From positions 1 to 37,791 of IMG/VR virus record IMGVR_UViG_3300030059_002116: 37,791 bases of DNA; one strand, given 5' to 3'. Made by a program: the position numbers and the translations under genes. The notes under the pieces were generated by a model, which saw only the letters and a program-made list of their open reading frames with translations, ran no database searches and had not been told where the DNA came from. Below are positions 10,745-27,326 of the stretch, in pieces. Numbering within the stretch: the stretch's first letter is position 1; each line of letters opens with the position of its first letter. The DNA is from a virus (taxonomy: Duplodnaviria; Caudoviricetes).

Positions 10745-11692
10745 ATGAATATTAATAAAGCAGATGAGCTAGAGCCAATTGAGCGTTTCTTTTATTGGAT
10801 AAATGAAAGGCACGCTATATATCAAAAACGAATACAAGGCTTTGCTCCCCCTTGGACAGATGATTCTATTCTACAAAGCTATAAATTTACAAACCCATTC
10901 CGTGAAAATGATAAAGTTACCATATGGATGCGACAGAACTGGACGAAGCCAAATGGCAATCGACCAATGGGTGAAATTTTGTTTAACTGCTGTTTGTTTC
11001 GTATGGTGGGAACTATAGAATTTGCTGATGAGCATAAGTGGGTTTATGAAGACTATGGCTGGTCTGTTGAAAGAACCAAAGAAACAATATCTGCTCGGTT
11101 AGAGAAAAAATTGCGGACCTTTACTGGAGCGTATATAATAACTAATCAAGGTTTAAAGTTACCCAAAGGAGAAGTTGTAGTTGACCATTTCCTCAAACCA
11201 ATATGGGAAAATAAAGAAAGGCTTGCAGAGGTTGCGACCAAAACTAACTCGTTACAAGAAGTACACCGTGCGATGCTTGCCTATAAAGGGTGGGGTGGAG
11301 GGGGCTTTATGTCTTACGAAGTGGTTACCGATCTCAATCACACAAACGTATTGGACACGGCGACAGACCGTTTTACTTGGGCAAACGCTGGTCCAGGGGC
11401 AAAACGAGGACTAAACCGAATACACGAAAAATTGTTAACACAAGCCATGAGCCAACACCAAGCTAATACTCAAATGCAAAACTTATTACAAAAATCATCA
11501 CAGTATTTGTTAAGTCATGTCCCAATAGAAGAAGTTGATATGCGAACTATTGAGCACAGCCTTTGTGAATGGGATAAATGGGAACGAGTTAGATTAGAAC
11601 AAGGTACACCTCGTAGTAAGTACGATCCTGTGCAAGCCTTTAAAGATAAAGAGTTTTTAGAGACAGGGAGTGTTGGCAATGTTGTGTCTTAA
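10745..11692 (+). CDS. 5-hydroxymethyl-dU DNA kinase family protein (aGPT-Pplase1 / HhH-glycosylase-like helical fold)
   Basis: Family signature 'FFYWINERHAIY.KR..G..PPWTDDSILQSYKFTNPFRENDKVT', 'GGFMSYEVVTD', 'GPGAKRGL', 'IEHSLCEWDK'. Confidence 0.8.
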   Translation: MNINKADELEPIERFFYWINERHAIYQKRIQGFAPPWTDDSILQSYKFTNPFRENDKVTIWMRQNWTKPNGNRPMGEILFNCCLFRMVGTIEFADEHKWVYEDYGWSVERTKETISARLEKKLRTFTGAYIITNQGLKLPKGEVVVDHFLKPIWENKERLAEVATKTNSLQEVHRAMLAYKGWGGGGFMSYEVVTDLNHTNVLDTATDRFTWANAGPGAKRGLNRIHEKLLTQAMSQHQANTQMQNLLQKSSQYLLSHVPIEEVDMRTIEHSLCEWDKWERVRLEQGTPRSKYDPVQAFKDKEFLETGSVGNVVS

Positions 11693-12011
11693 ATGTAAAA
11701 AAGGAAAAACAGTTGTTGAAGATAGTAGACTGTTAGTTTATACTGATCACTTTAATAAGTTTATAAGTGGAACAACACGACGTAAAAGAGTGTGTTTGGT
11801 TTGCAATCATAGTTTCAGAACAGTAGAAATAGAACAAGGGGAACAATACCTACCCAAAGAACTTCCCCCTAAACCTGGATCTCGTTTGGCTAGTACACGA
11901 AAGAAACAAATTAAAATAAGTGGGCTTAATACTAAAGACGTAGATGAGTTAACAGACGAAGAGTTAGAAGAAGCAATATACAACGGAACATTAAACTTTG
12001 AGGAGGGATAA
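11679..12011 (+). CDS. NrdR-N-terminus-like zinc-ribbon protein
   Basis: 'CLKC...TVVEDSR...RRKRVCLVCNHSFRTVE' matches the NrdR Zn ribbon; no ATP-cone follows. Confidence 0.7.
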   Translation: MLCLKCKKGKTVVEDSRLLVYTDHFNKFISGTTRRKRVCLVCNHSFRTVEIEQGEQYLPKELPPKPGSRLASTRKKQIKISGLNTKDVDELTDEELEEAIYNGTLNFEEG

Positions 12012-12812
12012 ATGATACCAATATATATATTAACTAGAGGAAGAGTAAGTAAACAAACCACATGGGAGAGTATAGGAGTACACGCTCAAAACTCAGAGCA
12101 TACTGTGTTGGTATGTCCTACTGAAGAAGTGTCTAGGCATCAACATTTTAACAGAAGAGCATTGGATCGTGGAGACGTAAAGGGTGCTCCTAATGTTAGG
12201 CAATGGATACTAGAACATGCAAAGGAAAAGGACTATGATAAAATTATTGTTTTGGATGACGATCTTATATTTGGTCGCAGAGCACACCCTGACTTACCAT
12301 CTTTAAGAAAAACAACTAAGAACGAGATGTATGAATTGTGGGATAGAATGGAAGCTCTGTTAGATGGCTTTGTGCATGTTGGGGTTAGTCCACGCCAGAT
12401 GAATGATAAACATTTTCCACATGTGTTCAAAAAGTGTATGCGACAAAACGCTTTGCATGGGCTACGACCTAAGGATATACTCCGCACAGATTTAAAATAT
12501 AATGATGTAGAGTTAATGGAGGATTACCATATGACATTAGGTTTGTTTGGTATAGGTCAAGCTAACGCAGTTATTACTGATTGGACATGGGATCAGCGTG
12601 GTGCAAGTGGAGCTCCCGGAGGTTGCAGTCTTTACCGTGATGCTGCATTACAAGAGGAGGCTAGTAAAAAGTTGGAAAGTAAGTACCCTGACTTTGTCAA
12701 GTCTTTACAAAAAGAAACTAAAACAGGATGGGAAGGAATGAAAACACGATGGGATGTACGAGTACAATGGCGAAAAGCTGCGAAACAAGGAGGCTGTGAA
12801 TATGGAGTATAA
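12012..12812 (+). CDS. GT-A fold DNA-base glycosyltransferase-like protein (TET/JBP-associated TAGT/GREB1-like)
   Basis: 'IYILTRGR' start, 'RQWIL', DxD motif 'IIVLDDDL', 'MEDYHMTL', 'PGGCS.YR'. Confidence 0.7.
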   Translation: MIPIYILTRGRVSKQTTWESIGVHAQNSEHTVLVCPTEEVSRHQHFNRRALDRGDVKGAPNVRQWILEHAKEKDYDKIIVLDDDLIFGRRAHPDLPSLRKTTKNEMYELWDRMEALLDGFVHVGVSPRQMNDKHFPHVFKKCMRQNALHGLRPKDILRTDLKYNDVELMEDYHMTLGLFGIGQANAVITDWTWDQRGASGAPGGCSLYRDAALQEEASKKLESKYPDFVKSLQKETKTGWEGMKTRWDVRVQWRKAAKQGGCEYGV

Positions 12813-13797
12813 ACAAGAGCCCCCTAACGCTATTCAAATAGAATTAGCTGAGGGCTGTAATCTAGCCTGTTCTTTTTGTGGTATACAAGCTATACGAGAG
12901 AATGGGGCTGACGGTCCAAAGAAGGTAAGAGGCAAAGGCTCTGGTCCATATAAGTTTCTTAGTATGGAAGTAGCTGAACGCATTGCCGATTCTATAGTGG
13001 AAGCCAAATGGAACAGTAGGTTAGAGTTTGCTATGCACGGTGAGCCAACGATGCACCCCCATTATCACGATATGATAAAGTTGTTTAGAAATAAATTACC
13101 TAAAGCCTCTATTATGATGACAAGTAATGGTGGTGGTCTTTTACTAGGCGACGGCTTAAACGCTAACATCAACAAACTGATGGACTCAGGTTTAAATGTT
13201 TTGTTTTTAGATAACTATGATGGAATAAAAATAGTAGATAAAATACAAGCTAAATATGAAGGTCCTCATGAGGTAATACAATATCCCCATGATAAGAGAG
13301 GCAACCCACACAAACGAAGAAAGCCTAATGAGCATCATATTGTAGTCGGAGCAGATTTAACTTTAGCTAGTGATGGAACACATGCACAAGTTAGTAATCA
13401 TGCCGGATCGGCTTTCCCACTTAACGATAAGCAAGAGGGCAAACGATGTGCCAAACCCTTCAGGGAGCTCAGCTTAAGATGGAATGGTAAGGTTGCTCTT
13501 TGTTGTAATGACTGGACAGGTTGGTACAAGTGTGGGGATGTAATGGAGGAAAAAATAAATGAAATCTGGACTAATGACTTGTTTCTTGGTGCAAGAACAA
13601 GATTATATCACGGTTCACGTGACTTCGGACCGTGTCGTGGCTGTGATAACGCTACTATTCGTAATGGGCTTTTGCCTGACCGAATGGGCAAAGTGGAGAT
13701 GCCGAAGCCAACAATTCAAACAGATAAACATATTGAAGAAGCGTTAAAAGGTGGCACTTACACAAAACAAGTCAAGCCTATATTTGACTTTATTTAA
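12802..13797 (+). CDS. Radical SAM protein with SPASM/twitch domain
   Basis: CxxxCxxC 'CNLACSFC', 'HGEP', C-terminal 'CAKPF...CCNDW...PCRGC'. Start at ATG 12802 after AAGGAGG. Confidence 0.88.
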   Translation: MEYKQEPPNAIQIELAEGCNLACSFCGIQAIRENGADGPKKVRGKGSGPYKFLSMEVAERIADSIVEAKWNSRLEFAMHGEPTMHPHYHDMIKLFRNKLPKASIMMTSNGGGLLLGDGLNANINKLMDSGLNVLFLDNYDGIKIVDKIQAKYEGPHEVIQYPHDKRGNPHKRRKPNEHHIVVGADLTLASDGTHAQVSNHAGSAFPLNDKQEGKRCAKPFRELSLRWNGKVALCCNDWTGWYKCGDVMEEKINEIWTNDLFLGARTRLYHGSRDFGPCRGCDNATIRNGLLPDRMGKVEMPKPTIQTDKHIEEALKGGTYTKQVKPIFDFI

Positions 13798-13899
13798 GGC
13801 TTGTTCGCGTGTTAGAAACTTGCTTTTTGTAAGTTTGTAGGGCATAAATAATTCAAGCTGTTAAAACAGCTTAAAAACAACCCATAGAAAGGGGAAGCA

Positions 13900-14910
13900 A
13901 TGGCTTTATATGGAAAGACTATGCGTAGTGACCACAGCTTTTGTTGTGTTAACGTCAGTGACGCATTATATTTAATAAAACAATCTATTGAAGAAAACGG
14001 TGTACGAGTTGAAACTAGGAATGGACCAGCTTTAGAGTTTCCTAACCCTTGTATCATTACATACAACAACCCAAAAGAAAGGGTACTGTTTTACCCTGAG
14101 CGTGATGCCAACCCCATCTTCCATTTTATGGAAAGTATGTGGATGCTTGATGGGCGTAATGATTTATATTTTATAAAATATTTCAATAAACAAATGGAAC
14201 AATACAGTAATGACAAGCATACGGTGTCAGGTGCTTATGGTTATCGATGGCGAAGGTACTTTGCAAGAGACCAATTTGAAACAGTAATACATCGTTTAAG
14301 AAAGTATCCTAACGATCGTAGGACTGTCTTGAGTATGTGGGATGCAGTGCATGACCTACGGAAGGACAATGAGTCTAGGGATTTACCTTGCAATACTCAC
14401 ATTTATTTTTACATACGAAACAATATGCTGGATATGACAGTGTGCAATCGTAGTAATGATTTGATATGGGGAGCTTGTGGAGCTAATGCTGTGCATATGA
14501 GTTTCTTACAAGAGTATATTGCTACAATGGTTGGTGTAGAAGTGGGAACATATACTCAGTTTTCTAACAATCTACACGCTTATGATTTTACTTTAAAAAA
14601 GCTAGAAGGTATGCAACCTGACTATGATTCTTATGCCTCTAGAAATTTTACCACCTTACCTCCGTTGATTGATGATATTAAAACATTTGATAATGAATTA
14701 ACTTTGTGGTTACAACACCGAGCAGTGTCTAAGGATTGGACAAACTCTATATTCGCTAATGTTGCTCAGCCTATGCTACAAACATGGAATGCTTGGAAAG
14801 ACAAAGACTGGAAAAAAGCATATGCTAATGCTGAACGGATAGGTTCAGATGATTGGTGCGTAGCAACTTTAGAATGGTTAAACCGTAGAAAGGATTTATT
14901 TAATGGATAG
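13900..14910 (+). CDS. Thymidylate-synthase homologue, probably dUMP hydroxymethylase
   Basis: Catalytic 'DLPCN', 'NRSNDLIWGACGAN' (Asn at the dUMP-specificity position), 'NNLHAY'. Divergent from canonical ThyA and embedded in a modification cluster. Confidence 0.8.
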   Translation: MALYGKTMRSDHSFCCVNVSDALYLIKQSIEENGVRVETRNGPALEFPNPCIITYNNPKERVLFYPERDANPIFHFMESMWMLDGRNDLYFIKYFNKQMEQYSNDKHTVSGAYGYRWRRYFARDQFETVIHRLRKYPNDRRTVLSMWDAVHDLRKDNESRDLPCNTHIYFYIRNNMLDMTVCNRSNDLIWGACGANAVHMSFLQEYIATMVGVEVGTYTQFSNNLHAYDFTLKKLEGMQPDYDSYASRNFTTLPPLIDDIKTFDNELTLWLQHRAVSKDWTNSIFANVAQPMLQTWNAWKDKDWKKAYANAERIGSDDWCVATLEWLNRRKDLFNG

Positions 14911-15202
14911 GGGATATAGCCTTATAATAGAACAAGTTAAGGACTTAGCAAATGAAGATGTAATAGAATTACATAAAGCCGAACTGTCGTACGGCGACAG
15001 TTGGAAAAAGCGAGGGGGTGTCGGTGCGTTTATGATGCTTGCTCGTAAATGGGATAGGCTTCAGAACCAAGTGGATGGACACAGTTATGATATATTTAAA
15101 GCTATCTCAGAAGACCAACGCCCCGAAGGCATACTAGATGATATACGTGATTTGCGTAGATATCTGTTGTTGGTTGAGGCAGAAATGATAGGTGATGACT
15201 GA
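14903..15202 (+). CDS. Nucleotide-modification-associated all-alpha protein (Nmad1/DUF1599-like)
   Basis: 'SYGDSWKKRG..GAFMMLARKWDRL...DDIRDLRRYLLL'. Confidence 0.65.
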   Translation: MDRGYSLIIEQVKDLANEDVIELHKAELSYGDSWKKRGGVGAFMMLARKWDRLQNQVDGHSYDIFKAISEDQRPEGILDDIRDLRRYLLLVEAEMIGDD

Positions 15203-15359
15203 TCTAGACACAGAAGTAAAAGCCGTTTGCGAAGACTGTCAAAAGGAACAAATAGTTACTTTTCGTAAACTTAAAAATAAATGGGTTATCTGCAGTTGCG
15301 GACAGCCAATGATTATAAAGGTACAAAATGCAATTCCCCCTATTCACACCACCGACTGA
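15195..15359 (+). CDS. Small Zn-ribbon protein (54 aa; not in the ORF track)
   Basis: MTDLDTEVKAVCEDCQKEQIVTFRKLKNKWVICSCGQPM...; CxxC and CxC pairs; fills the gap before the polymerase. Confidence 0.55.
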   Translation: MTDLDTEVKAVCEDCQKEQIVTFRKLKNKWVICSCGQPMIIKVQNAIPPIHTTD

Positions 15360-17247
15360 GTGGGTTATGCCTGACGGCTACCCTGATTTAAGAGAAGCAA
15401 AAGAAATAGCTATTGACCTTGAAACACGTGATCCAAACCTTTTAACAATGGGCTCTGGGTGGGCTAGGGGTGATGGCGAAATAATAGGAGTTGCCGTAGC
15501 AACACACAGCGAATCATGGTACTTTCCTATACGCCACCAGAATGGCACTAACCTTGACCCTGATCAGACGATGAGGTGGGTTAAAGACTTATGTAGCATA
15601 AACCGTGACTATATTATGCACAACGCCATGTATGACGCTGGTTGGCTCTGGCAAGAAGGTATTGATATAAAAGGTCGCATGATTGACACAATGGTTGTCG
15701 GTGCTTTGCTTGATGAAAACAGGTTTAGCTATGCTCTTAACTCTTTGGGTCGTGATTATCTTGGTGAGCGTAAGAATGAAAAAGATTTACAAGAAGCTGC
15801 GAGGCAGTTTGGTGTCAATGCTAAAAGTGAAATGTATAAACTCCCTGCTCATTTTGTAGGAGCTTACGCTGAACAAGATGCAGCTTTGACAATGAAGCTA
15901 TGGCAGTTATTTAAAGGTCTAATTATCAAAGAAGATATTGCCGACATATTTGAATTAGAAACAAATGTTCTACAAGTCGTACTTGCTATGCGAAAAAAGG
16001 GTGTACGAGTGGACTTACCAAAAGCACAAGAGCTTAAAGAGAGGCTTGAAAAGCAAGAGATAGAAGTTTTAAAATCAGTGGGAGGTGAGGGTATTGATAT
16101 CTGGGCTGCTCGTAGTATTGCAAAAGCCTTTGATGCTGTTGATTTAAGATACCCAACTACTGAAAAGTCTAAGCAACCAAGTTTCACTAAAAACTTTTTA
16201 GCCAATCACGAGCACGCTTTGCCTCGTGCCGTCGTTAGGGCAAGAGAACTTAATAAGGCTCGTACAACTTTTATAGATACTATACTCAAGCACCAACATA
16301 AAGGTAGGATATTTGCTGAAGCCCATCCACTTCGCAGTGATGAGGGTGGGACAGTTACAGGTCGATTTAGCTACAGTAACCCCAACCTTCAACAAGTCCC
16401 TGCTCGTAACGCTGAAATAGGTCCGTTAATTCGTGGTTTGTTTTTACCTGAAGAAGGTGAGTTATGGGGGGCGTTTGATTACAGTAGCCAAGAGCCTCGT
16501 TTAGTTGTTCATTATGCAGGATTATTAGACTTTAAAGGTGCAATGGACTTCGTTGAGCAATACCAAAAGGACAAGCATACTGACTTCCACCAGATGGCAG
16601 CTGATATTGTGGGAGTGCCTCGTAAGCAAGCTAAAGATATTAATTTAGGTTTGTTCTATGGCATGGGTAAGAATAAACTTGCTGAGCAGTTGGGTCTTGA
16701 ACTAGAAGATGCCAAAGACTTATTCGCCGAGTATCATGGCAAAGTTCCTTTTGTCCAGCAGTTAGCTGATTATGCTACAGCTCGAGCAAGTAAAAAAGGT
16801 GTTATAAGAACGCTATTGGGACGTAGATGTAGGTTTGATAAATGGGAGCCTAACGCTTATGGAACATTCAAACCATTACCCTATCAAGAAGCATACAATG
16901 AACACGGACCAGCGATTCGTAGATGCTTTACTTATAAGGCATTGAACAAATTAATTCAAGGGAGTGCTGCTGACCAAACAAAAGCTGCGATGGTAGCTCT
17001 CCACAAAGAAGGCATAGTGCCAATGATACAAGTTCATGATGAATTAGATGTGTCTGTACAAAGTGAAGCTCAAGCAAAAAGGATACAAGAAGTTATGGAA
17101 AACTGTGTGGAAATGAAAGTACCTAGCGTTGTTGATGCTGAGTTTGGTTTGAGCTGGGGCATGGCAAAGAAAACATTTAGTGATAAACCGTGGACAAGAG
17201 GAAAAGCAGATGGACACAGCAAGCAACAAACGAACAACAAACTTTAA
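15328..17247 (+). CDS. Family A DNA polymerase with 3'-5' exonuclease
   Basis: Exo 'IAIDLET', 'HNAMYD', 'YAEQD'; motif A 'FDYSSQEPR', motif B 'RKQAKDINLGLFYG', motif C 'QVHDEL'. Confidence 0.95.
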   Translation: MQFPLFTPPTEWVMPDGYPDLREAKEIAIDLETRDPNLLTMGSGWARGDGEIIGVAVATHSESWYFPIRHQNGTNLDPDQTMRWVKDLCSINRDYIMHNAMYDAGWLWQEGIDIKGRMIDTMVVGALLDENRFSYALNSLGRDYLGERKNEKDLQEAARQFGVNAKSEMYKLPAHFVGAYAEQDAALTMKLWQLFKGLIIKEDIADIFELETNVLQVVLAMRKKGVRVDLPKAQELKERLEKQEIEVLKSVGGEGIDIWAARSIAKAFDAVDLRYPTTEKSKQPSFTKNFLANHEHALPRAVVRARELNKARTTFIDTILKHQHKGRIFAEAHPLRSDEGGTVTGRFSYSNPNLQQVPARNAEIGPLIRGLFLPEEGELWGAFDYSSQEPRLVVHYAGLLDFKGAMDFVEQYQKDKHTDFHQMAADIVGVPRKQAKDINLGLFYGMGKNKLAEQLGLELEDAKDLFAEYHGKVPFVQQLADYATARASKKGVIRTLLGRRCRFDKWEPNAYGTFKPLPYQEAYNEHGPAIRRCFTYKALNKLIQGSAADQTKAAMVALHKEGIVPMIQVHDELDVSVQSEAQAKRIQEVMENCVEMKVPSVVDAEFGLSWGMAKKTFSDKPWTRGKADGHSKQQTNNKL

Positions 17248-17737
17248 AAGCCTGGATACTATTTATGATGCACAGTTTCTTATGCGATATCATACCGTTC
17301 CAATACAAGGATTGAGGCAGACAGTGGGAGCACATTCATACGCAGTAGCTATACTTATTGACCAACTTTGGGAAAATGTACCGAAGCAGTTAATCATGGC
17401 AGCTCTATACCACGATGTTCCTGAGATGGTCTTAGGCGATATTCCTGCTACAGCGAAATGGGATTATCCTGAAGTCAAACGAGCCTTTGAAAAAGCAGAA
17501 GCAAAGGTGATGGAAGACCTTGGATTGACTTTTATACTTAGCCCAAAAGACAAAGCTCGTTTAAAGATGGCAGACATGTTAGAATTAGTTCTCTATTGTG
17601 AAAAGCACGCTGACGCAAACACTCAAATGAAAATAATTATGAACACTGGAGTCCAGTATTTGTTTAGCAATTTCAGTGAGTTGAAGGACTTTGAGCCTGT
17701 GAAAGAAGTTTTACGGAATCGCAATTTGAGTAACTAG
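17210..17737 (+). CDS. HD-domain 5'-deoxynucleotidase (YfbR-like)
   Basis: 'RYHT...QTVGAHSY', 'ALYHDVPE..LGDIP', 'LKMADMLE'. Confidence 0.85.
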   Translation: MDTASNKRTTNFKSLDTIYDAQFLMRYHTVPIQGLRQTVGAHSYAVAILIDQLWENVPKQLIMAALYHDVPEMVLGDIPATAKWDYPEVKRAFEKAEAKVMEDLGLTFILSPKDKARLKMADMLELVLYCEKHADANTQMKIIMNTGVQYLFSNFSELKDFEPVKEVLRNRNLSN

Positions 17738-17814
17738 ACCAATTATTATTTGTTTCTTGCTGTAAACCCCTATATAAGTAAAGTATACACAAACCATACA
17801 CAGAAAGGTATGTT

Positions 17815-18087
17815 ATGAATATTATTACTAACACATGGCAAGATTACGAGGAGGAAACTCTTAGGTATACTATAGGTTACACCGTCACCGAGTTCAAGGG
17901 GCGTGGTAGTTATGAAACTCGTAAGTTCAAAACACTAGCAAAAGCTCAGCATTTCTATAGGTTGCATAAGACAGCCTTTCCTAATGCTAGGATTATTATT
18001 TATGCAGTATGTCAGCCCCCTAATCGTCAGCTTACGGTAAGCCTTCCAGTAAGCGATAATAATTGGGAGATGCAAAAAGTTATATGA
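17815..18087 (+). CDS. Hypothetical protein
   Basis: Own promoter-like sequence (TTGCTG-16-TAAAGT) and CAGAAAGG RBS. Confidence 0.6.
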   Translation: MNIITNTWQDYEEETLRYTIGYTVTEFKGRGSYETRKFKTLAKAQHFYRLHKTAFPNARIIIYAVCQPPNRQLTVSLPVSDNNWEMQKVI

Positions 18088-18548: not shown

Positions 18549-18549
18549 T

Positions 18550-18822
18550 ATGAAAGAACTAGAGCCTAGATGGTCTATCTATGAAATAGAAGAGGGCTTT
18601 GTGTTAATTAATGATAACTTATCACACACAAAGCCTCGTATGTTTTCTAGCATGGAACATGCGACAAAATGGATACTGAGTTTTTACGAAACTGTAACAG
18701 AGCGAGACCGATTGACCATTCGTCAAGGGGACAGTGATAAAAAAGAGGGTATGACAACCCAAACAAACCTTCGTCATCCTTATGATAGAGATGATGATTA
18801 CTGGGATAAACAAGGAGGATAA
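18550..18822 (+). CDS. Hypothetical protein
   Basis: 90-aa ORF abutting both neighbours in the operon. Confidence 0.55.
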   Translation: MKELEPRWSIYEIEEGFVLINDNLSHTKPRMFSSMEHATKWILSFYETVTERDRLTIRQGDSDKKEGMTTQTNLRHPYDRDDDYWDKQGG

Positions 18823-18823
18823 T

Positions 18824-19147
18824 ATGACTATCGATATTTCAAAAGAAGAACTAATGGAAGCCATCCACAAATATGACAGCATTGGAGACATAGTTAAACA
18901 TCTTGGGATAAGTCGTGCTTCTCTTTTTAAAATCTGCATGAGTAACTATGTTAAATCTTTACCAGATGGTAGGAAACACAGAACAGATTTTAAAAGTGAG
19001 CGAGCTCGGGACATATTTCAATCTCGACATTTCGAGGGGATGACTATGCGAGCGATAGCTAAAAAGCACGGCATAAGTAGACAGAGGGTCTTTCACATAC
19101 TAAAAACTCAGTATGATAAGTCAAGACTTGCAACTGAAACTTCCTAA
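18824..19147 (+). CDS. Helix-turn-helix DNA-binding protein (two HTH motifs)
   Basis: 'SIGDIVKHLGISRASL' and 'MTMRAIAKKHGISRQRVFHIL'; AAGGAGG RBS. Confidence 0.7.
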   Translation: MTIDISKEELMEAIHKYDSIGDIVKHLGISRASLFKICMSNYVKSLPDGRKHRTDFKSERARDIFQSRHFEGMTMRAIAKKHGISRQRVFHILKTQYDKSRLATETS

Positions 19148-19191: not shown

Positions 19192-19458
19192 ATGGAAAAT
19201 TTAAATAAAATAATCCCAACCGTTGAGCAAACGGCTAAAAAACGAGTAGGCAATCCAATGGGTCCTTTGCACCTTGCAAGGGAAGTCATGGAGTTGAGTA
19301 CTAAAATTGCCGTATTATCAGATGACTACGCCTTTCAGTATGCCTTTATGGAGTATGTAAAGCAAAAAGACAGAGCCTTGTATAATGAGGCTATGTTAAC
19401 TGCCGAGGCAATGCTTAGAATACAAGGATTAAACGTACCAGAAAGGGATGAGTACTAA
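19192..19458 (+). CDS. Hypothetical protein
   Basis: Promoter TTGCAA-16-TATACT (19128-19155) and CAGAAAGG RBS. Confidence 0.6.
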   Translation: MENLNKIIPTVEQTAKKRVGNPMGPLHLAREVMELSTKIAVLSDDYAFQYAFMEYVKQKDRALYNEAMLTAEAMLRIQGLNVPERDEY

Positions 19459-19680: not shown

Positions 19681-19702
19681 TTTATTAACGAGGGGGAGTT
19701 AA

Positions 19703-19900: not shown

Positions 19901-19930
19901 AATGGATTATTTAATTGCTTTCGCGATTGA

Positions 19931-20139
19931 TATGTTGGCTCAGATAATAGTCAACATACCTTTGACATAGGGGGAACTCAGCTCCTTTGTCTAGTACAAG
20001 TGCGTCGGTGAGTGGCGTGGCTTCAAAGCTGTAGATGTCTGTTATGTAGATACCCTTATCAATTTAATTGATTTGCATGACAGGGCAAGATTTAGAGTTC
20101 CTTAAACATTAGTAAATTTAATCTACGGAACACTCACGA
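19931..20139 (+). ncRNA. Candidate structured RNA 2 (nested stems with kissing loops)
   Basis: Stems 20008-14/20131-37, 20029-36/20121-28 and 20039-51/20071-83 (G-U rich); loop GAACTC (19974-79) complements loop GAGTTC (20095-100). Confidence 0.5.
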
Positions 20140-20214
20140 TAATTATTTTATTGTTACGACCCCCAAAATTGCTATAATTTAAGTATAAACAAACTTCACA
20201 GAAAGGAAGTATTC

Positions 20215-20436
20215 ATGAGCTTAGAAATTATGGATTGTTGTATTTGCAAAAAGCAAATAGAGCCACAGCGTACTGAATCAGGTGAAATATACTGGACGCA
20301 AGGAAACGATGCTCTTCCCATACATGATGGCAGATGTTGCAATAAATGTAATGAAAATATTGTTGTACCTGCTCGCCTTGTTGATATATCAATGAGCACT
20401 GGAAAAATTTACAAAAAACCTAAGGAGGACAAATAA
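20215..20436 (+). CDS. Small Zn-finger protein
   Basis: 'CCIC...GNDALP..GRCCNKCN..VVPAR'; promoter TTGTTA-16-TATAAT (20151-20178). Confidence 0.7.
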   Translation: MSLEIMDCCICKKQIEPQRTESGEIYWTQGNDALPIHDGRCCNKCNENIVVPARLVDISMSTGKIYKKPKEDK

Positions 20437-20666
20437 TGGCAAAATTACAAAATAGTCATTTAGTAGATAATGACGACATCAACCTTCACACTGAGAATAT
20501 ACTTCGTAAAATAAAAGTATGGTTGCGAGACGAAGTTAATAGCGTAAGAGATAATCCTCTCTCTGAAGATGATGATAGTAGGGAGTCGGCAATTCTTCAA
20601 GGTAGGTATGAATGTGCTGAAGGGTTACAAGACCAAATTAAAAAATGGGAGAGAGAAGATGGGTAA
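20436..20666 (+). CDS. Hypothetical protein
   Basis: AAGGAGG RBS; TAATG coupling. Confidence 0.6.
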   Translation: MAKLQNSHLVDNDDINLHTENILRKIKVWLRDEVNSVRDNPLSEDDDSRESAILQGRYECAEGLQDQIKKWEREDG

Positions 20667-20859
20667 ATACAATTCAGACAGCATTGATGAATGTTGTGAA
20701 GAAATAACTGGTCATACTAACTGGGCGTATGCAGACAAATCTGATTACGAAAAGATAATGAGCCAAAGAAATGGGGATCATCCCAACAGTGATAGAATAC
20801 ATTCTATTGTTGTGTTTTATAATGATGAAATGGAGGACGAACCCTATGACGGAGTATAA
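20659..20859 (+). CDS. Hypothetical acidic protein
   Basis: Start re-assigned to ATG 20659 (MGKYNSD...), overlapping the previous stop. Confidence 0.55.
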   Translation: MGKYNSDSIDECCEEITGHTNWAYADKSDYEKIMSQRNGDHPNSDRIHSIVVFYNDEMEDEPYDGV

Positions 20860-21196
20860 TAATGCGTGGATGGTAGAGTTTTGGTCGGTAAAAGACAAGG
20901 TATGGGAAATAATGGTTTCCTATCCATCTACAAAACTTGTGAGTTTAAATAACCAAGTGCCTCAGCCTCTCGGCGATGTTCACGATCTAGACATAGGCGA
21001 AGTAAGAGCCTCCCATGCCAAAAGGATTTACGAAAGGCTAGGACTTGCACGCTACCGAGTTCGGTATGGACATGCCACATATTTAGATGGGCAGTTTGGA
21101 AAGCAGGACAAATATGTTTTTGAGTACGATCGTACCGAAGTAAAAGCCGAGATACCTTATAATAGGCAAGCTCCGCCTGGAGCAGCTCTCTCATGA
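20846..21196 (+). CDS. Hypothetical protein
   Basis: Start re-assigned to ATG 20846 after GGAGG. Confidence 0.55.
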   Translation: MTEYNNAWMVEFWSVKDKVWEIMVSYPSTKLVSLNNQVPQPLGDVHDLDIGEVRASHAKRIYERLGLARYRVRYGHATYLDGQFGKQDKYVFEYDRTEVKAEIPYNRQAPPGAALS

Positions 21197-21405
21197 GTGT
21201 GCTTGAAATGAAAGTGGTCGGAGGCAAACGGACCTATCGCAACCGATCCGTTCGTGAGAAATTAATTAACGATATAGCCAAGATGGATAGCTCTTCTATC
21301 CGTAAAAATATAGATCGTTACGCAGAAATACCTTTTCGTCGCCAGCGAGACGCTTTGATGTTTGAGCTGTACACTGAGGAATTGCAACGGAGGGAAGCCC
21401 AATGA
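21193..21405 (+). CDS. Hypothetical protein
   Basis: ATGA overlap with the previous gene. Confidence 0.55.
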   Translation: MSVLEMKVVGGKRTYRNRSVREKLINDIAKMDSSSIRKNIDRYAEIPFRRQRDALMFELYTEELQRREAQ

Positions 21406-21526
21406 TTATATTATCCGTAATATTTTTTCTACTTGTCGTTTGGTTGATTAAATAGATTACTTTTTACTACATTTAGTAAAATCGCACTATATAATAAAAG
21501 TAAGTAAACAACTAAAGGAGTGATAA

Positions 21527-21736
21527 ATGCAAAAAGAGTGGGTTATTATACGATGGACCACTGCCCAATTCATGAGTGGTAATAAAGTGGGTGATATAAC
21601 TATTTACCCTGATTACGATGATGGTTTTGTGTGGGGTTCTGCAGCGTATGAAGTACTTGATTATTTCACAGGTACTTATCATGAAGTCAAGCGTTACGCT
21701 TTGAAATATAAAAGGGAGGAAGTAAATGCAACTTAG
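21527..21736 (+). CDS. Hypothetical protein
   Basis: AAAGGAG RBS after an AT-rich promoter-like gap. Confidence 0.6.
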   Translation: MQKEWVIIRWTTAQFMSGNKVGDITIYPDYDDGFVWGSAAYEVLDYFTGTYHEVKRYALKYKREEVNAT

Positions 21737-21911
21737 AATAGAAAAATGTGTAATTGATTTATATTGGGAGTACGACCGTATGTCAAGCAGTGGTCAAGCT
21801 ACTTTAGATCGGTTAGCTAAAATGGTCGGTGTGCCAACAGAAGCCAATATGGATAAAAAGTTTGACCACCTGTCTAAAGATCAACTGCTCAAAGAACTGG
21901 AGGAGTTGTAA
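21726..21911 (+). CDS. Hypothetical protein
   Basis: GGAGG RBS; 'DLYWEYDRMSSSGQATLD'. Confidence 0.6.
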   Translation: MQLRIEKCVIDLYWEYDRMSSSGQATLDRLAKMVGVPTEANMDKKFDHLSKDQLLKELEEL

Positions 21912-22168
21912 TGAATTACCCTGTAGAAGCAGAAGATATCATTGATTCAGTACCTCAAGTTAAAGATGCAGTCTTTGCCGTATATAACCATGGATTCATG
22001 GAAGGTATAAAAGAGGGTAAACGATTAGCATTAAAAGATACTAAAGGTCCAGAGTTTACAGTCATACGCAGTCTTGAAGATCAGATAAAAACATTGTTAG
22101 ATCGTAACTCAGTTCTTGCTAACATGTATAACAAGAGCATATCTAGCAAAAAACTGGAGGTGTCGTAA
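21911..22168 (+). CDS. Hypothetical protein
   Basis: TAATG coupling, GGAGGAG RBS. Confidence 0.6.
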   Translation: MNYPVEAEDIIDSVPQVKDAVFAVYNHGFMEGIKEGKRLALKDTKGPEFTVIRSLEDQIKTLLDRNSVLANMYNKSISSKKLEVS

Positions 22169-22515
22169 TGGCTAAATCACTATATTGTCCCCAATGCAAC
22201 GAGGAGTATTGGGGGACTAAACAAAGTCTTGCATACCACCCTGTCTGTGGAGGGTGTGGTTATGATAAACTAGGCAAGCCCGATCCAACTGTTTTTGATT
22301 TAGTAACGGACCCAAGTATGCGATACTTATGGAAGGTTACTTATCCGGATAGTGAAGTGGAGTACATGGTTACAAAAGATAGGGTTACTATGATGAGCGA
22401 AAAGAATAGGCTAAACAAAGTTCATAAGCCTTTCGTAGTAAAAGTTGAAATACTTGATTTTGCAAAAGTCTTAGATATAGACCGTGAATATTTAACAGCA
22501 GTAGTGGGGGATTGA
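22168..22515 (+). CDS. Hypothetical Zn-ribbon protein
   Basis: 'CPQC...CGGC'; GGAGG RBS; TAATG coupling. Confidence 0.6.
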   Translation: MAKSLYCPQCNEEYWGTKQSLAYHPVCGGCGYDKLGKPDPTVFDLVTDPSMRYLWKVTYPDSEVEYMVTKDRVTMMSEKNRLNKVHKPFVVKVEILDFAKVLDIDREYLTAVVGD

Positions 22516-22706
22516 CAATGATTAACTACCGTATCCATTCTGAAGATGGTGTGTGGGTTCTAACGCATCGCCGAAAACTAAATCCATTAGGCTTTTTCTC
22601 ATCACGTGAGCAAGCCCAACAACGACTAGACTATGAGATCTTAAAAGATGAACACGAAAGATCTCTAGCAAAAGAGGACTATAATAGTCGTCTCCTGCAG
22701 AGCTAA
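22512..22706 (+). CDS. Hypothetical protein
   Basis: Overlaps the previous stop; 64 aa. Confidence 0.5.
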   Translation: MTMINYRIHSEDGVWVLTHRRKLNPLGFFSSREQAQQRLDYEILKDEHERSLAKEDYNSRLLQS

Positions 22707-22799
22707 AACCTTATCACACGAGGTTAAAAAACTAGCCTAAGACGTTGTATTTGCTACTATTAATTATAAAGTAAATACAACATCTTAAAGGAGTTCTAA

Positions 22800-22988
22800 A
22801 TGTCCAATCAATGCGTAATCTGTGAAGAAAAAACAGAAACCAACCATCTCATACTAGGCAGTCAATGGCTAGAATTCTGTCTACCTTGTGGTCATAAGGA
22901 ACAGTTGACCAACCAACAAACTGGAGAAACAAAAACTCTCGTAGAAGTTTTTAATGAAAATCGTAAACCAACAGAAAGGATCGGCTAA
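22800..22988 (+). CDS. Small Zn-finger protein
   Basis: 'CVIC...CLPC'; AAAGGAG RBS; promoter TTGTAT-16-TAAAGT. Confidence 0.6.
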   Translation: MSNQCVICEEKTETNHLILGSQWLEFCLPCGHKEQLTNQQTGETKTLVEVFNENRKPTERIG

Positions 22989-23362
22989 TGAACCATGAAT
23001 TCAATAATTTAGGTATCACCTATCATGAGTACTTCAGTAATGTTTTACACGTCTGGGCATACAAAAACGGTAGACGCTCAGGGCTAGGTCCCTTCTTAGA
23101 CAGGCGTGCAGTTTGGCACACCGACTTTCCAGTTTGTCATTATCAATGTTCTGAGGACGGTCGTGCTTTTACAACGGTAGCCGATTTAAGAACAGAAAGC
23201 CTCATTTGTACTTACTCATACTGTGACGGTCACCGTAATGTGTGCAAATCAATCATGCTTCACCATGAAGAAATACCTTTAATAGAAAAAGACTTGGAAA
23301 ATATCTTTTGGCACCTCGTCAAAGATGACAACTTTGGCTTTGAAAAGGAGGAAAGCAAATGA
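22988..23362 (+). CDS. Hypothetical protein
   Basis: AGAAAGGA RBS; TAATG coupling. Confidence 0.55.
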   Translation: MNHEFNNLGITYHEYFSNVLHVWAYKNGRRSGLGPFLDRRAVWHTDFPVCHYQCSEDGRAFTTVADLRTESLICTYSYCDGHRNVCKSIMLHHEEIPLIEKDLENIFWHLVKDDNFGFEKEESK

Positions 23363-23488
23363 AAATAGCACTCTATATTCTCGTAGAGTTGTGGGCTATC
23401 ATATATCTTATGTGTGTAGCCTTCACTCTCGCTTATTTCGCAGCTCACCTTGCTGGAGTATCCACCAACCTCTAACCATGAACTCTGC

Positions 23489-23570
23489 TATATAGTAACG
23501 ATTTCAAAATGTTGTCGTTATTATATTTCAGATATCCCAATATACAATATCTTAGTATCTATTATTTCCG
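23489..23570 (+). repeat. Copy 2 of the ~85-bp dispersed non-coding element, just upstream of terS
   Basis: Collinear match to the reverse complement of 3030-3114, including the exact 16-mer AATATACAATATCTTA. Confidence 0.8.
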
Positions 23571-23652
23571 TATCGCGAAGAGTTAAACTTGCGGAAAACT
23601 TTAGGAGTCGATTTCATTTGCCATCCCTATTAGTCAGAGTTATTGTATCGTT

Positions 23653-24210
23653 ATGGCAAAAGCGAAAGTAACACATAAGAAACTTCTTGACATAGTGGCT
23701 AATCCAAAGGTAGATTTTGGAATCACAGTTATGCAAGAAAAGTTTGCAAAGATATACGCAACCGAAGAGGTAACACAGACTGAAGCTGCTTTGAGGGCTG
23801 GGTACGCAGAGTCTAATGCCCATGCTATCGCAAGCCGAATGTTAAACGGACGAGACTATCCTGCAGTTTTGGAAAGAGTCCATCTGATAAAAACAGAGCT
23901 ACAAACTAAATACGAGGTGACTTTTGAAAGCCACGTCAGGAAGTTAGCTCAGATTCGCGATGAGTCATTGCAGAATGGAAATTACGCCTCAGCCGTCGCT
24001 GCTGAAAAAGCAAGAGGACAAGCAGGTGGTCTATACATTGATAGAAAAGAGATATTAATGGGTAAGATTGACCAGATGGATAAGAAGGAAGTAATGGCAG
24101 AGATACTAAGAATACAACAAGACTTCCCAGCCTTGATAAATGCGACTAAAGGTGCGATAGATGTTGAGTCTGTTGAAATACACCCGAGCAGTAAAGATGC
24201 AAAAGACTAA
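23653..24210 (+). CDS. terS: Terminase small subunit
   Basis: 'QEKFAKIY....TQTEAALRAGYAESNAHAIASRML' HTH typical of TerS; 'AVAAEKARGQAGGLYIDR'. Confidence 0.8.
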   Translation: MAKAKVTHKKLLDIVANPKVDFGITVMQEKFAKIYATEEVTQTEAALRAGYAESNAHAIASRMLNGRDYPAVLERVHLIKTELQTKYEVTFESHVRKLAQIRDESLQNGNYASAVAAEKARGQAGGLYIDRKEILMGKIDQMDKKEVMAEILRIQQDFPALINATKGAIDVESVEIHPSSKDAKD

Positions 24211-24283
24211 AAACAGCTACCTCCATTGTTGTAAACCCTTATAATAAAACTAAGTTAAATTTTAATTATTAAGGAGTTACTAA

Positions 24284-24538
24284 ATGAATTACTACCAAAA
24301 CTTGCAAGAGCAAGAGCATAATGATTTTAATTACACCAGCGAAGCAGATTGGGACAAAGAAGACGCAAGGATAATAGGCGAGCAAAATACAAATTATCCT
24401 TGGATTTGTTCAGGTCGTGATGTTTGGTATCCCAATCCTTATTGGGGCAAGTACGACCAGTCGGGCAACCCTTTACGAAAAGAGTACCCCTTTGCGAATG
24501 TTCCTCACCCAGAAAGTTATGATGGGGAGGAATCATAA
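24284..24538 (+). CDS. Hypothetical protein
   Basis: AAGGAG RBS; 'WICSGRDVWYPNPYW...PHPE'. Confidence 0.65.
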   Translation: MNYYQNLQEQEHNDFNYTSEADWDKEDARIIGEQNTNYPWICSGRDVWYPNPYWGKYDQSGNPLRKEYPFANVPHPESYDGEES

Positions 24539-24996
24539 TGGCAACAAGAGCATGTTATAAGTTTGAGACTTTTCCAGGAGGTGATATTACCCCATCGTCT
24601 CACAATACAGTTATTGTCTACAGGCATTGGGACGGCTACCCCTCAGGAGCCCAAGATCACTTGCACTGTATTCTTAATCACAAGCACCCCCTCGCTACTG
24701 AACAAGCCTTACATTTTATGGAGTGTAACAACAGAGGATCAGGAAAGGCAACTACTGAAGAGACCGATCATGTGCATGATGATTGCGATTACTTTTATCA
24801 TTTAGCGTGGTTTCCATCTAACCGTGAAAGGATCCCCAAGCCACAGATAACAGTTTGGAAAAGCACACGATACGATAAGCACATAGAAGGTGACTGGGCA
24901 GTTTTGTTCAAAGGCTCGTTTGACCACTTTATGATTACTGATTTTAAGTATTATCATGACTTCATGTGTCCTGTAAATGCAGAGGAATATGTATGA
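24538..24996 (+). CDS. Hypothetical protein ('MATRA...YRHWDGYP' family)
   Basis: Common small phage protein motif 'Y.HWDGYP'; GGAGG RBS; TAATG coupling. Confidence 0.65.
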   Translation: MATRACYKFETFPGGDITPSSHNTVIVYRHWDGYPSGAQDHLHCILNHKHPLATEQALHFMECNNRGSGKATTEETDHVHDDCDYFYHLAWFPSNRERIPKPQITVWKSTRYDKHIEGDWAVLFKGSFDHFMITDFKYYHDFMCPVNAEEYV

Positions 24997-25409
24997 AACC
25001 TGAAACCCAGTTTTGGAATCTAATAAAAAAGCATACTCAGTCGTATGTTCATTGGTCACGTCTGGAGTCCTTAGCGTCTCCAGGAGTGCCTGATCTTAAT
25101 GGTTGTTATGAATCAAAAGAGATCTGGATTGAACTCAAGGTTTTAACAACAAGAACTGACAAGTCTTTCCCTAAATGGCGTCCCCTCCAAATAGCATGGC
25201 AGACCTCAAGAACGAGGGTTGGTGGATGCGTTTGGAACTTGGTTCATCATCCTTCGTCCGCTTCTATATTAATTATGGATGGAAAGCACCTTGCACCGAG
25301 ATTGATGGACCGTGATCCGATCTGGGATGGACGTCGGTTATTGAGCGAGATGGATGGAGATGGATGGAAAGCTCTTCTTGATCAAATGTGCTCGGGGCGA
25401 GTCTATTAG
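24993..25409 (+). CDS. PD-(D/E)xK nuclease, Holliday-junction-resolvase/VRR-NUC-like
   Basis: 'MKPETQFW...RLES...PGVPDL...WIELK...RPLQIAW'. Confidence 0.8.
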   Translation: MKPETQFWNLIKKHTQSYVHWSRLESLASPGVPDLNGCYESKEIWIELKVLTTRTDKSFPKWRPLQIAWQTSRTRVGGCVWNLVHHPSSASILIMDGKHLAPRLMDRDPIWDGRRLLSEMDGDGWKALLDQMCSGRVY

Positions 25410-25494
25410 ACTCTGGAAAAAGTCCAAATTGTTCAATGTTAATCGGCAAGTCTAACTTGTTCAAAAACCATCGGCGAGTCTATTTGACTCTGGA
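25349..25494 (+). repeat. Repeat cluster: (GATGGATGGA)x2, then A-B-B-A degenerate repeats
   Basis: GGCGAGTCTATT[A/T]GACTCTGGA at 25396 and 25473 (21/22 identical); AAGTC[C/T]AA[A/C]TTGTTCAA at 25420 and 25448. Confidence 0.75.
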
Positions 25495-25530
25495 CGAAAT
25501 AAATAAATCATCATTAAGAGTAAATAGGGG

Positions 25531-25559
25531 TTTACATCAGCGAAAATAGCTGCTATTCT
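25531..25559 (+). promoter_or_regulatory. Strong sigma70-type promoter (cassette 1)
   Basis: TAGGGG-TTTACA-17 bp-(TGc)TATTCT, extended -10. Confidence 0.65.
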
Positions 25560-25616
25560 ATATAAGTAATAAGGCACTTAAGTCTTTTACACACTCCGCA
25601 GAAAGGGAGATATCAA

Positions 25617-26090
25617 ATGGCTAAAACAGCTAAAAAAGAGCAAGCAACTCAGGCTCCAACAGTTGCATCCTACTCAGGCATTACAGCGTTATCAGCTGAA
25701 CGTATCAAGGGTCGTGAAGGTGTCAAGGCGTCGGACATTATCGCATTTATCCAAGAGTTCGCAGGTGGCAATCCAAACAATGTCGGTATTCGTTTGGTTG
25801 GTGGTGTTGATATCAAGGCTGAGCTTCCATTTCCTTGGGAAGCCAAGAAGTCAATGTATCACGAAAATGGTGTTAAGAAAACTGAAAAGCGTGCGAGGGT
25901 CATGTGGGCTTTAATCTATTGCCAATCAAATGATGAAACATATACTCTTCAGGCTTGTGATCTTGACCATAAGATAATCAAGGCTAAACAATATCACGGT
26001 CTACTTGACGCACTTAATGGCGGACAGTCACCTTCCAAAGCATCATGGGGTAAAAACTTCGTTGAGCTCTTCGTTATCCCTAAGGCTTAA
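25617..26090 (+). CDS. Hypothetical protein, probable remote paralogue of 26773-27285
   Basis: Own promoter, AGAAAGGGAG RBS and terminator; shares ordered motifs with the next cassette protein. Confidence 0.75.
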   Translation: MAKTAKKEQATQAPTVASYSGITALSAERIKGREGVKASDIIAFIQEFAGGNPNNVGIRLVGGVDIKAELPFPWEAKKSMYHENGVKKTEKRARVMWALIYCQSNDETYTLQACDLDHKIIKAKQYHGLLDALNGGQSPSKASWGKNFVELFVIPKA

Positions 26091-26102
26091 CACTCATCAC
26101 TC

Positions 26103-26132
26103 GGGGCGAGGGCTTATGTCTTCGTCCCTTTC
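26103..26132 (+). terminator. Rho-independent terminator (cassette 1)
   Basis: GGGGCGAGGGC-ttat-GTCTTCGTCCC (G-U pairs), then T-rich. Confidence 0.65.
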
Positions 26133-26144
26133 ATTTACCTGTTT

Positions 26145-26275
26145 ACTTAACATGTTAAGTTTCGTTCCCTGACGGGATTTTTTTCCCCTGACGGGGGATG
26201 GATGGAGATGGATGGAGATGGATGGAACATGAATCAATTAGACTCAGGAACATATATATACATATATACATATAC
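26145..26275. repeat. Palindrome and short-repeat region
   Basis: 16-bp palindrome ACTTAACATGTTAAGT, two CCCTGACGGG hairpins, (GATGGATGGA)x3 at 26197-26226, CATATATA repeats. Confidence 0.75.
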
Positions 26276-26408
26276 AATAACCATTATCAAATCACACATA
26301 TTGGTTGAATCAATAAGAGTCATTAAATATAAATTAATCTTAATGATAACTTCTTCGTTGTGTCTTTTTTGTAAACAGTTAAATTAAAGTTATTAACAAC
26401 AACAACTA

Positions 26409-26606
26409 ATGGAGTTTAAAATGCAAGTAATGGGAGTAATAATGTTTTTAATGGGTGGATTTGCTGTCGCAAGTGGTTACTTAATATTAAAGTATGCAAC
26501 GGTAGATATTATGGCTGCGACGGTTATATGTGGTTTTATCGCTAGCTTGGGAATGTTACTATTAATAGCAGGACTATATACTATATATATACATAGGCTT
26601 AAATAA
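26409..26606 (+). CDS. Small membrane protein (2 TM)
   Basis: Two hydrophobic helices; the start may be ATG 26421 after GGAG. Confidence 0.55.
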   Translation: MEFKMQVMGVIMFLMGGFAVASGYLILKYATVDIMAATVICGFIASLGMLLLIAGLYTIYIHRLK

Positions 26607-26681
26607 TGGCGTTGTTAGCAGTGTTATTATTTTTAATATTAATGTTATTTAAATTAATTTAACTTTATTTGTATTTAGGGG

Positions 26682-26710
26682 TTTACAAGTAAAACTAGTT
26701 GTGATATAAA
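26682..26710 (+). promoter_or_regulatory. Strong sigma70-type promoter (cassette 2)
   Basis: TAGGGG-TTTACA-17 bp-(TGa)TATAAA; same -35 context as 25531. Confidence 0.65.
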
Positions 26711-26772
26711 TAGGTGTGGCGTTGTGCCACTTAATATAAACTTAACAAGTTAACAAACCAAAGGGGTTTAAA

Positions 26773-27285
26773 ATGCAAACACAAACAACAAGTTACACAC
26801 CAACAGTAACTATAAAAAACAGTCACCAACAAGCTACCAACCTAGTAGCGTTTATCAAGGCTAATGGTGGTATAGGTAAATGGTCATTACTATTAAATGC
26901 TAACGCAATGGTTACTGTAAAAGGTAAAACAGTATTTTTCGGTGGTGGCAATATGCACCAAGCAATGTTCCCAACTAGTGGCAAGTTAGGTCATAGGGGT
27001 CAAATATTATGGTCATGTGTTAATGGTTTAACTTTGCCAAGTAGTCATGTTAAAAAGCAACCGTTGCCAATTAGTACAACAGTGCCAACAACGCTTGTAC
27101 CTATCCCGCTAAGTGCAATCCAACAAGCTCACGCTAACAGTGGCAGTAGCATACTAAGTATTGGCAACGCATTACATGCAAATCAAAACGCAGTCAACGC
27201 AATCCTAATAGGTAACTTTGCATATAGTAGTAGCAAGGGTAGCATGTTAGGCAATACGTACGGTACGCTCGTACCTAACGCTTAA
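26773..27285 (+). CDS. Hypothetical protein with no Asp/Glu, encoded by a GA-free transcript
   Basis: 170-aa ORF with its own promoter, AAGGGG RBS and terminator; no GA dinucleotide in the gene. Confidence 0.75.
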   Translation: MQTQTTSYTPTVTIKNSHQQATNLVAFIKANGGIGKWSLLLNANAMVTVKGKTVFFGGGNMHQAMFPTSGKLGHRGQILWSCVNGLTLPSSHVKKQPLPISTTVPTTLVPIPLSAIQQAHANSGSSILSIGNALHANQNAVNAILIGNFAYSSSKGSMLGNTYGTLVPNA

Positions 27286-27291
27286 CTAATT

Positions 27292-27326
27292 ACTAGCTAG
27301 GGGTTGAGGTACCCCTAGCTAGTTTC
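27292..27326 (+). terminator. Terminator hairpin (cassette 2)
   Basis: Perfect 13-bp stem ACTAGCTAGGGGT/ACCCCTAGCTAGT, loop TGAGGT, short T tail. Confidence 0.75.

Follow-up and report, generated by a model that had tools for sequence, protein, structure and literature searches.

A gene purged of the GA dinucleotide in marine phages with predicted thymine-modification genes: a candidate starter copy of an ordinary twin

A locus in the uncultured caudovirus record IMGVR_UViG_3300030059_002116 offers a testable answer, together with a named protein, to the question of how the host RNA polymerase begins to transcribe phage DNA that is heavily modified. The 37,791 nucleotides (nt) of this record that were analyzed (hereinafter the window) form part of a marine podovirus-like genome, which combines putative thymine-modification genes with a gene whose coding strand lacks the dinucleotide GA altogether. 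What removed this step from just one gene? We propose that the gene might be the starter copy of a duplicated pair, kept free of the sites at which the phage would modify its own DNA. The purged gene and its immediate surroundings are as follows:

26676..26712, + strand: predicted sigma70-type promoter of the GA-free gene, GGGGTTTACA, with TG-n-TATAAA (from the sequence and homologous cores)
26704..27306, + strand: GA-free run of leader, open reading frame (ORF) and first terminator arm (from GA count and expectation)
26773..27285, + strand: GA-free gene, 170 amino acids, zero Asp/Glu, isoelectric point 10.3, 16 TC; recoded twin of the gene at 25617-26090
27293..27325, + strand: terminator-like hairpin; the GA that ends the run lies in its loop (from the sequence; hairpins occur in homologues)

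The run spans 603 nt, as against 131 nt for the next-longest GA-free run, and is bordered by a GA at the extended -10 (26703) and another in the terminator loop (27306). About 42 GA would be expected in such a run, and the window-wide chance of finding one is about 1e-15. In the window's copy GA alone is absent and TC is present. A long GA-free run on the gene strand is likewise unique in seven of the eight other long carrier records, the exception being G020, where two GA break it. The original prediction of a GA-free gene thus holds in a stronger form than first stated, with 96 of 109 homologues free of GA. The elements of its predicted near-consensus sigma70 promoter are visible by eye (TTTACA at 26682-26687, 17 nt, and TG-n-TATAAA with TATAAA at 26705-26710), and the consensus promoter scan missed them because the hexamer lacks the final T. 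The ORF is a real gene, since its homologues align with conserved positions, the proportion of nonsynonymous differences (pN, 0.015–0.13) is far below that of synonymous ones (pS, 0.22–0.63) in 11 pairs, and the predicted structure folds with a predicted local distance difference test score (pLDDT) of 77. Across more than 100 gene variants it is under purifying selection.

Three scans recovered 155 loci with 109 distinct complete homologous genes, none of which contains more than two GA. Neither GA nor TC is found in 82 of the 109; a further 10 have no GA and one to three TC, and four have no GA and more TC. The rest hold one or two GA, together with one to three TC in a single gene and with more than three in 12. 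Silent recoding alone predicts 11–17 GA and 16–25 TC per gene, and no dinucleotide other than these two has been lost. TC being the complement of GA, the step is therefore missing on both strands in most copies. The purged zone usually extends from 5′ of the -35 to about 80 nt beyond the stop, and at loci L186-L197 it grows to 1.0–1.1 kb and takes in a small membrane-protein gene. Among the promoter cores, 61 of 92 contain neither GA nor TC. The target of selection is double-stranded DNA rather than the mRNA, because most genes lack both dinucleotides and untranscribed promoter DNA is purged too. In 12 of 93 leaders the ribosome site is still GGAG; therefore, the cost per site is graded.

The two strands are not equal in this respect. 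On a quick-search tree into which 96 of the 155 loci entered (complete, distinct proteins), TC-rich copies, including that of the window, account for 14 of the 96 proteins and for seven changes, at least six of them on well-supported branches. All seven TC-rich genes tested have zero silent GA, versus 3.7–5.2 expected in each under a codon bias like that of the twin; scaling by the extent of TC return gives, by our own arithmetic, about 15 in all for the seven. Residual GA lie in Asp or Glu codons in 11 of the 12 cases listed. A coding-strand GA is a template-strand TC, and as coding-strand TC has returned repeatedly, but silent GA in none of the seven genes tested, it is template-strand TC that matters most. 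The original prediction argued for the template strand on the window alone, and in this it was right; it missed that most relatives avoid TC as well. Several small genes (window 8635-8967, 17815-18087, 19192-19458, and their relatives) also show partial silent-GA avoidance, with codon-junction ratios of 0.26–0.45 and TC mostly less affected.

Three other causes of the run were rejected. An assembly artefact is incompatible with its coverage by contigs of independent runs and with the low pN; amino-acid composition would still leave the 11–17 silent GA expected per gene; and ultraviolet damage does not fit, as coding-strand AA, AG and GG are not avoided.

The purged gene lies downstream of its ordinary twin, and the cassette of the latter is flanked by stretches unusually rich in GA:

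25340..25370, + strand: GA-dense tract within the 3′ end of ORF 24993-25409, the third GA-densest 30-nt interval
25511..25560, + strand: twin promoter with a TC-N5-GA palindrome 5′ of the -35 and TC in the -10 region (from the sequence and homologous cassettes)
25617..26090, + strand: ordinary twin gene, TC-rich, 157 amino acids, 16 Asp/Glu (hhalign match; model pLDDT 88)
26196..26226, + strand: (GATGGATGGA)3 tract after the terminator of the twin, the GA-densest 30-nt interval of the window

BLASTP between the two proteins gives no match, and they are linked only via profiles, which match weakly (hhalign 52.6%, E 1.4e-4), and via two Asp/Glu-poor proteins, P0076 and P0078, that bridge both families (P0076, like P0074, is known here as a protein only). 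On this evidence the purged gene is a distant recoded duplicate of 25617-26090, a paralogy overlooked in the original prediction. The twin lies upstream of the purged gene in nearly all loci reaching that far, and a -35 motif is common to both cassettes. Each of the 34 twin promoter cores contains GA or TC; TC-N5-GA stands at a fixed place with a variable middle in 31 of 32 twin promoters, and TC is present in the -10 region of all 32. The twin avoids silent GA partly, with a junction ratio of 0.37 versus 0.00 in the purged gene and mostly 0.6–1.3 elsewhere, for which high expression could be another explanation. As a natural experiment, the pair lets a single fold be compared in the presence and in the absence of Asp and Glu. 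Next to the twin, ORF 24993-25409 has an excess of GA (junction ratio 1.47) and of TC (1.23), and its order relative to the twin is swapped in G019, G004, L187, L195 and L196; it probably encodes a nuclease (PHROG 2165, "DNA helicase").

In the GA-dense tracts the spacers between GAs are mostly TG, yielding a GATG repeat with variants; GATGGATG occurs eight times in the window against 0.71 expected. At least seven GA per 30 nt are found after the twin stop in 24 of 38 cassettes and 5′ of the twin promoter in 25 of 38, as compared to 2.7% of background intervals. The tracts had been read as roadblocks of dense template-strand modification. Their presence and conservation are borne out, and the simple roadblock is weakened, in that base J acts through a reader and a GATG repeat could be a binding site; the tracts fit either role equally.

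Neither the GA-free protein nor the twin matches a family in Pfam or PHROGs, and the twin has no match in the phage collection. Fold searches with both found nothing significant in BFVD or VIA-align, nor did Foldseek against the PDB with the twin alone, which is no proof of a new fold. The best rows for the two models reach Z 4.1 (root-mean-square deviation 3.6, 91 aligned) and Z 3.8 (4.7, 93 aligned), below any trustworthy level, and the two weak lists overlap (Z at most 4.1). Several of these rows are winged-helix-type domains, which we treat as a lead only. ESM Atlas matches (0.80 for the GA-free protein; 0.90 for the twin, with a weak Pam3 gp34 lead) were not used. The purged product is basic and possibly DNA-binding.

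If self-made modification imposed the purge, its enzymes should accompany the gene. The window encodes PolA, helicases, primase, terminases, portal and capsid; its terL and capsid proteins are 62% and 70% identical, respectively, to those of Pelagibacter phage HTVC027P, and the carriers are uncultured records with a GC content of 37–49%. Between the replication genes, with the synthase and the aG/PT-PPlase1 gene near PolA, lie the following:

10745..11692, + strand: HMUDK_hel (aGPT-Pplase1) helical-domain protein without a P-loop (Pfam PF18723, E 4.7e-49)
12012..12812, + strand: TAGT glycosyltransferase (PF20691, E 2e-13; phrog_842)
12754..13797, + strand: radical SAM/SPASM enzyme (Pfam scan)
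13900..14910, + strand: thymidylate-synthase homologue, likely a hydroxymethylase of deoxyuridine monophosphate (dUMP) (family match; Asn after RSND in the translation)
14903..15202, + strand: small conserved cluster gene without a Pfam match, kept beside the synthase in long carriers
17180..17737, + strand: HD/YfbR-like 5′-deoxynucleotidase (Pfam scan)

The Asn after RSND is presumably a sign of a dUMP-type active site, and the gene at 14903..15202 may be of the type labelled "Nmad". The kinase/glycosyltransferase/radical SAM cluster of the original prediction is present as HMUDK_hel, TAGT, radical SAM enzyme and synthase; the kinase itself is not borne out, as the gene at 10745 encodes the helical domain alone, with no Walker A and a sub-threshold ADDT match (E 0.0089), whereas the characterized 5-hydroxymethyluracil (hmU) DNA kinase is a P-loop protein (PMC8989533, in excerpt).

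The five-gene cluster is whole in the window and in seven of the eight long carriers, the eighth record being cut in polA. A thymidylate synthase was found in 14 of 29 carrier records, the other 15 being fragments, 16–73% complete; with G055 and G056 counted as well, it is present in all five carriers that are at least 90% complete. As controls, we took 160 terL loci from other clades, found with two cultured relatives, of which 70 had at least 2.5 kb upstream: neither twin, nor a 400-nt GA-free run, is present in any of the 160. Of the control records, 25 have neither synthase nor HMUDK_hel, and five of these are near complete. The expectation that the gene occurs only with the cluster thus held. 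Genome-wide junction ratios of GA and TC are 0.66–0.87 in six cluster phages versus 0.89–1.00 in three relatives without the cluster (three cultured relatives were covered over their first 50 kb). The longest GA-free runs in the controls are L315:3932-4258 (327 nt) and L351:6464-6783 (320 nt); L278:7316-7586 holds one of 271 nt.

In sister phages, the stretch from HMUDK_hel to the synthase holds, instead of TAGT and radical SAM, a gene of 335 amino acids that matches no family (L182:8963-9979, L183:8962-9963), a candidate new DNA-modifying enzyme. The twin is present in these phages, and the available sequence contains no purged copy. AGA, GGA and TGA are avoided in their downstream genes, with C before Asp/Glu codons (CGA) in four of seven genes tested and coding-strand TC unchanged, which suggests a template context of TCH. 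The same genes stand in tandem, each with its own repeated promoter-like motif (L182/L206:11053-12311, L207:8084-9576, L209:8356-9209).

From these patterns we posit that the phage modifies T in 5′-TC-3′, that this hinders the host polymerase and that the purged gene is a starter copy, a proposition that we hold to be evenly balanced. TC would be the context because the only T in the GA/TC pair precedes C, if T is the modified base; the context is thereby predicted from sequence for an uncharacterized enzyme set (aGPT-Pplase1, TAGT, radical SAM). Known T modifications favor TG/TC (PMC6449724, in excerpt), a phage T-dioxygenase prefers NTC (PMC13229309, in excerpt), and caged or phosphorylated hmU shuts down the E. 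coli RNA polymerase in vitro (PMC6457204). The synthase would put hmU in place of T, after which TAGT and the radical SAM enzyme may attach a sugar to TC sites and tailor it, and the bulky group on the template T would slow the host polymerase; the 38 window proteins and 46 G016 proteins scanned include no phage RNA polymerase. The starter gene, as a duplicate of 25617-26090 without the step, would be transcribed first from incoming virion DNA, and its protein would perform the job of the twin before new, undecorated DNA exists. That job would most likely be to help the host polymerase use decorated phage promoters, e.g., the TC-N5-GA promoter of the twin; the full-strength twin with its acidic residues might then take over, and the GA-dense tracts, whether as dense marks or as sites for binding, might insulate the cassettes. 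We find it possible, though on the doubtful side, that the product makes the remaining genome available for transcription. Equally tentative is a wider formulation, in which hypermodification would serve abundant marine phages as an epigenetic lock: virion DNA would be silenced, one duplicated gene with an 18-amino-acid alphabet left unlocked, and its product might read modified TC-N5-GA or refit the host RNA polymerase and thereby open the other genes. Were the lock real, a purged dinucleotide would reveal modification contexts from sequence alone.

Several observations weigh against the starter-copy proposal. Among 38 proteins from the window and 46 from G016 (98% complete), Pfam scans found no P-loop 5-hydroxymethyldeoxyuridine DNA kinase and no amino-acid transferase. 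The function given to the product has neither homology nor fold support. Coding-strand TC has returned in a rapid, on/off manner in lineages sharing the cluster (G016, G020 and the window), and many other genes combine host-type promoters with normal GA content. The co-occurrence is that of one clade versus others, not many independent gains, and the T-modifying phages Pa-C, Ab19, Epa5 and phiJL001 have no context-free gene or stretch, the last even though it carries HMUDK_hel, TAGT and synthase. Base J, for its part, ends transcription through a JBP3/PP1 reader complex and not as a simple roadblock; glucosylated 5-hydroxymethylcytosine templates are still transcribed (PMC11550810); and one characterized system prefers TG over TC (PMC13458397, in excerpt). 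Separately, phiJL001 (L198-L199) shows strong genome-wide depletion of TA and TT at codon junctions (0.15 and 0.39).

Even under the rival readings, the gene would mark an as yet undescribed TC-directed host defense, together with its antidote. In the first of these, the same self-made TC modification is the target: a host enzyme, such as a Brig1-like glycosylase or a modification-dependent nuclease, attacks the modified base, and the purged gene encodes a counter-defense. This would account for the purge of both strands, the linkage to the cluster and the self-contained promoter-gene-terminator unit; host-dependent pressure could also explain the lineage-wise return of TC, and the abasic sites made by Brig1, proposed to impede transcription, would favor a clean template strand as well (PMC11078745, in excerpt). 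However, the remaining genome would be damaged in the meantime, the product has no Pfam or PHROGs family similarity, and the fixed TC/GA sites of the twin promoter and the conserved GA tracts look like wanted marks. We deem this reading unlikely.

The attack might instead fall on TC in ordinary DNA, by a DddA-like 5′-TC deaminase or a DarT-like ADP-ribosyltransferase, with the gene as antidote and the link to the cluster due to shared ancestry. DddA does target 5′-TC in double-stranded DNA (PMC10442228, in excerpt). The mild genome-wide depletion of GA and TC would follow, template lesions would matter most, and the sparing of CGA with avoidance of AGA, GGA and TGA in the sister phages would fit. 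Yet the relatives without the cluster show neither gene nor depletion, the tracts dense in bottom-strand TC are conserved, and no TC-specific anti-phage deaminase was among the papers listed by a literature search. Every GA context is purged, and hence a four-base motif such as TNTC, presumably that of DarT-like enzymes, is too narrow. Taken together, we regard attack on ordinary TC as improbable; evasion of an RNase or of a DarT-like (TNTC) enzyme, the fallback of the original prediction, is disfavored by this breadth along with the purge of the promoter and the loss of TC.

A third possibility is that the purged zone is the first-entering genome end, kept plain for entry or packaging, and that its product and small membrane proteins aid DNA transfer or superinfection exclusion. 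The flanks of the gene bear on this:

26409..26606, + strand: small hydrophobic ORF, 65 amino acids, with little TC or GA (in L186-L197 a similar gene falls within the purged zone)
26606..26662, + strand: hydrophobic ORF, 18 amino acids, zero GA/TC (from the sequence)
27335..27410, no strand: TTAACATGTTAA palindrome with a C-run and a conserved motif where the zone ends on the right, a possible genome end (C-run in 132 of 155 loci)

Besides the small hydrophobic genes inside the zone, downstream contig ends pile up 94–139 nt past the stop (14 of 110, versus about two per such interval further out), and contig depth, which is not copy number, is about 1.4–1.9 times that of the flanks over roughly 24.5–27.4 kb in several runs. 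Pile-up and depth step hint at a terminal repeat. On the other side, no sharp left end was seen, the TC-rich twin also lies within the higher-depth region and the strand bias follows transcription. An explanation by entry alone is in our view quite improbable, although it can coexist with the starter-copy proposal. Amplification bias fits the depth step poorly, as the region includes the TC-rich twin. Breaks in long assemblies tend to fall in or next to the purged gene (the ends of G055:C1; L124; L118; G006); within the gene, G055 shows an overlap of about 370 nt, and G056 repeats its own start near 59 kb. After both terminators comes the TTAACATGTTAA palindrome (window 26147-26158 and 27335-27346) and then motifs of the CCCT(G/A) type; in 16 of 155 loci the palindrome also occurs 5′ of the purged gene, which it brackets as an inverted repeat.

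Last, evasion at the mRNA level, in which a transcript free of GA would code for an antidote and itself evade a GA-cutting RNase or CmdT-like ADP-ribosylation, is very improbable: CmdT does modify the adenine of GA in single-stranded RNA and block translation (PMC11618068, in excerpt), and the window gene lacks GA only, but TC is gone too in the majority of the homologues, untranscribed promoter DNA is purged and GGAG persists in ribosome sites, where CmdT should hurt most.

Elsewhere in the window, a helix-turn-helix protein with a sigma70 region 4-like match (18782-19147) is a candidate phage transcription regulator, and many early and middle genes share the ribosome-site motif (C/T)AGAAAGG, which follows AT-rich stretches resembling promoters (8620, 8965, 10095, 13885, 17800, 19175, 20200 and 25600). 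ORF 32178 contains a 27-nt tandem repeat (32307-32402) coding for GYNMGGMAG units.

The literature search, in which subscription journals were mostly outside coverage and supplements excluded, turned up no paper on a gene of this kind. As for the cluster, it is already known: Wittmers et al. (2022, PMC9599517, in excerpt) describe the pair of synthase and aG/PT-PPlase1 near PolA in HTVC023P-type pelagiphages of clades V, VIII and IX, with a deoxynucleotidase and a glucosyltransferase nearby. The present phages share with these that pair, its position and the related terL (62%) and capsid (70%), while the accessible part of that account is silent on a GA/TC-free gene, on a pair of twins and on the context of modification. 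With M6, ViI, phiW-14 and SH-Ab 15599 they would share an hmU precursor, post-replicative decoration and a TG/TC preference, which are here predictions (PMC6449724, PMC8989533 and PMC13458397, each in excerpt); those phages, as far as the excerpts go, use a P-loop kinase with an amino-acid or amine transferase, not found here, and the relatives of theirs that were tested have no context-free gene. CmdTAC has the GA dinucleotide as its target (PMC11618068, in excerpt), though in RNA only, which leaves the loss of TC and the purge of the promoter unaccounted for. Base J of kinetoplastids is, in the accessible accounts, a glycosylated hmU tied to transcription boundaries, for which a TAGT family gene is a possible counterpart here; it acts via JBP3/PP1 on Pol II, whereas the polymerase here is bacterial and neither twin has a family match. 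The first-step-transfer DNA of phages T5 and BF23 (PMC10644984) is similarly an early, possibly terminal region. It, too, is molded by motif avoidance, but the sites avoided there are longer host sites. In the present phages a single gene has lost a two-base step, and two amino acids with it, next to a twin that keeps the step.

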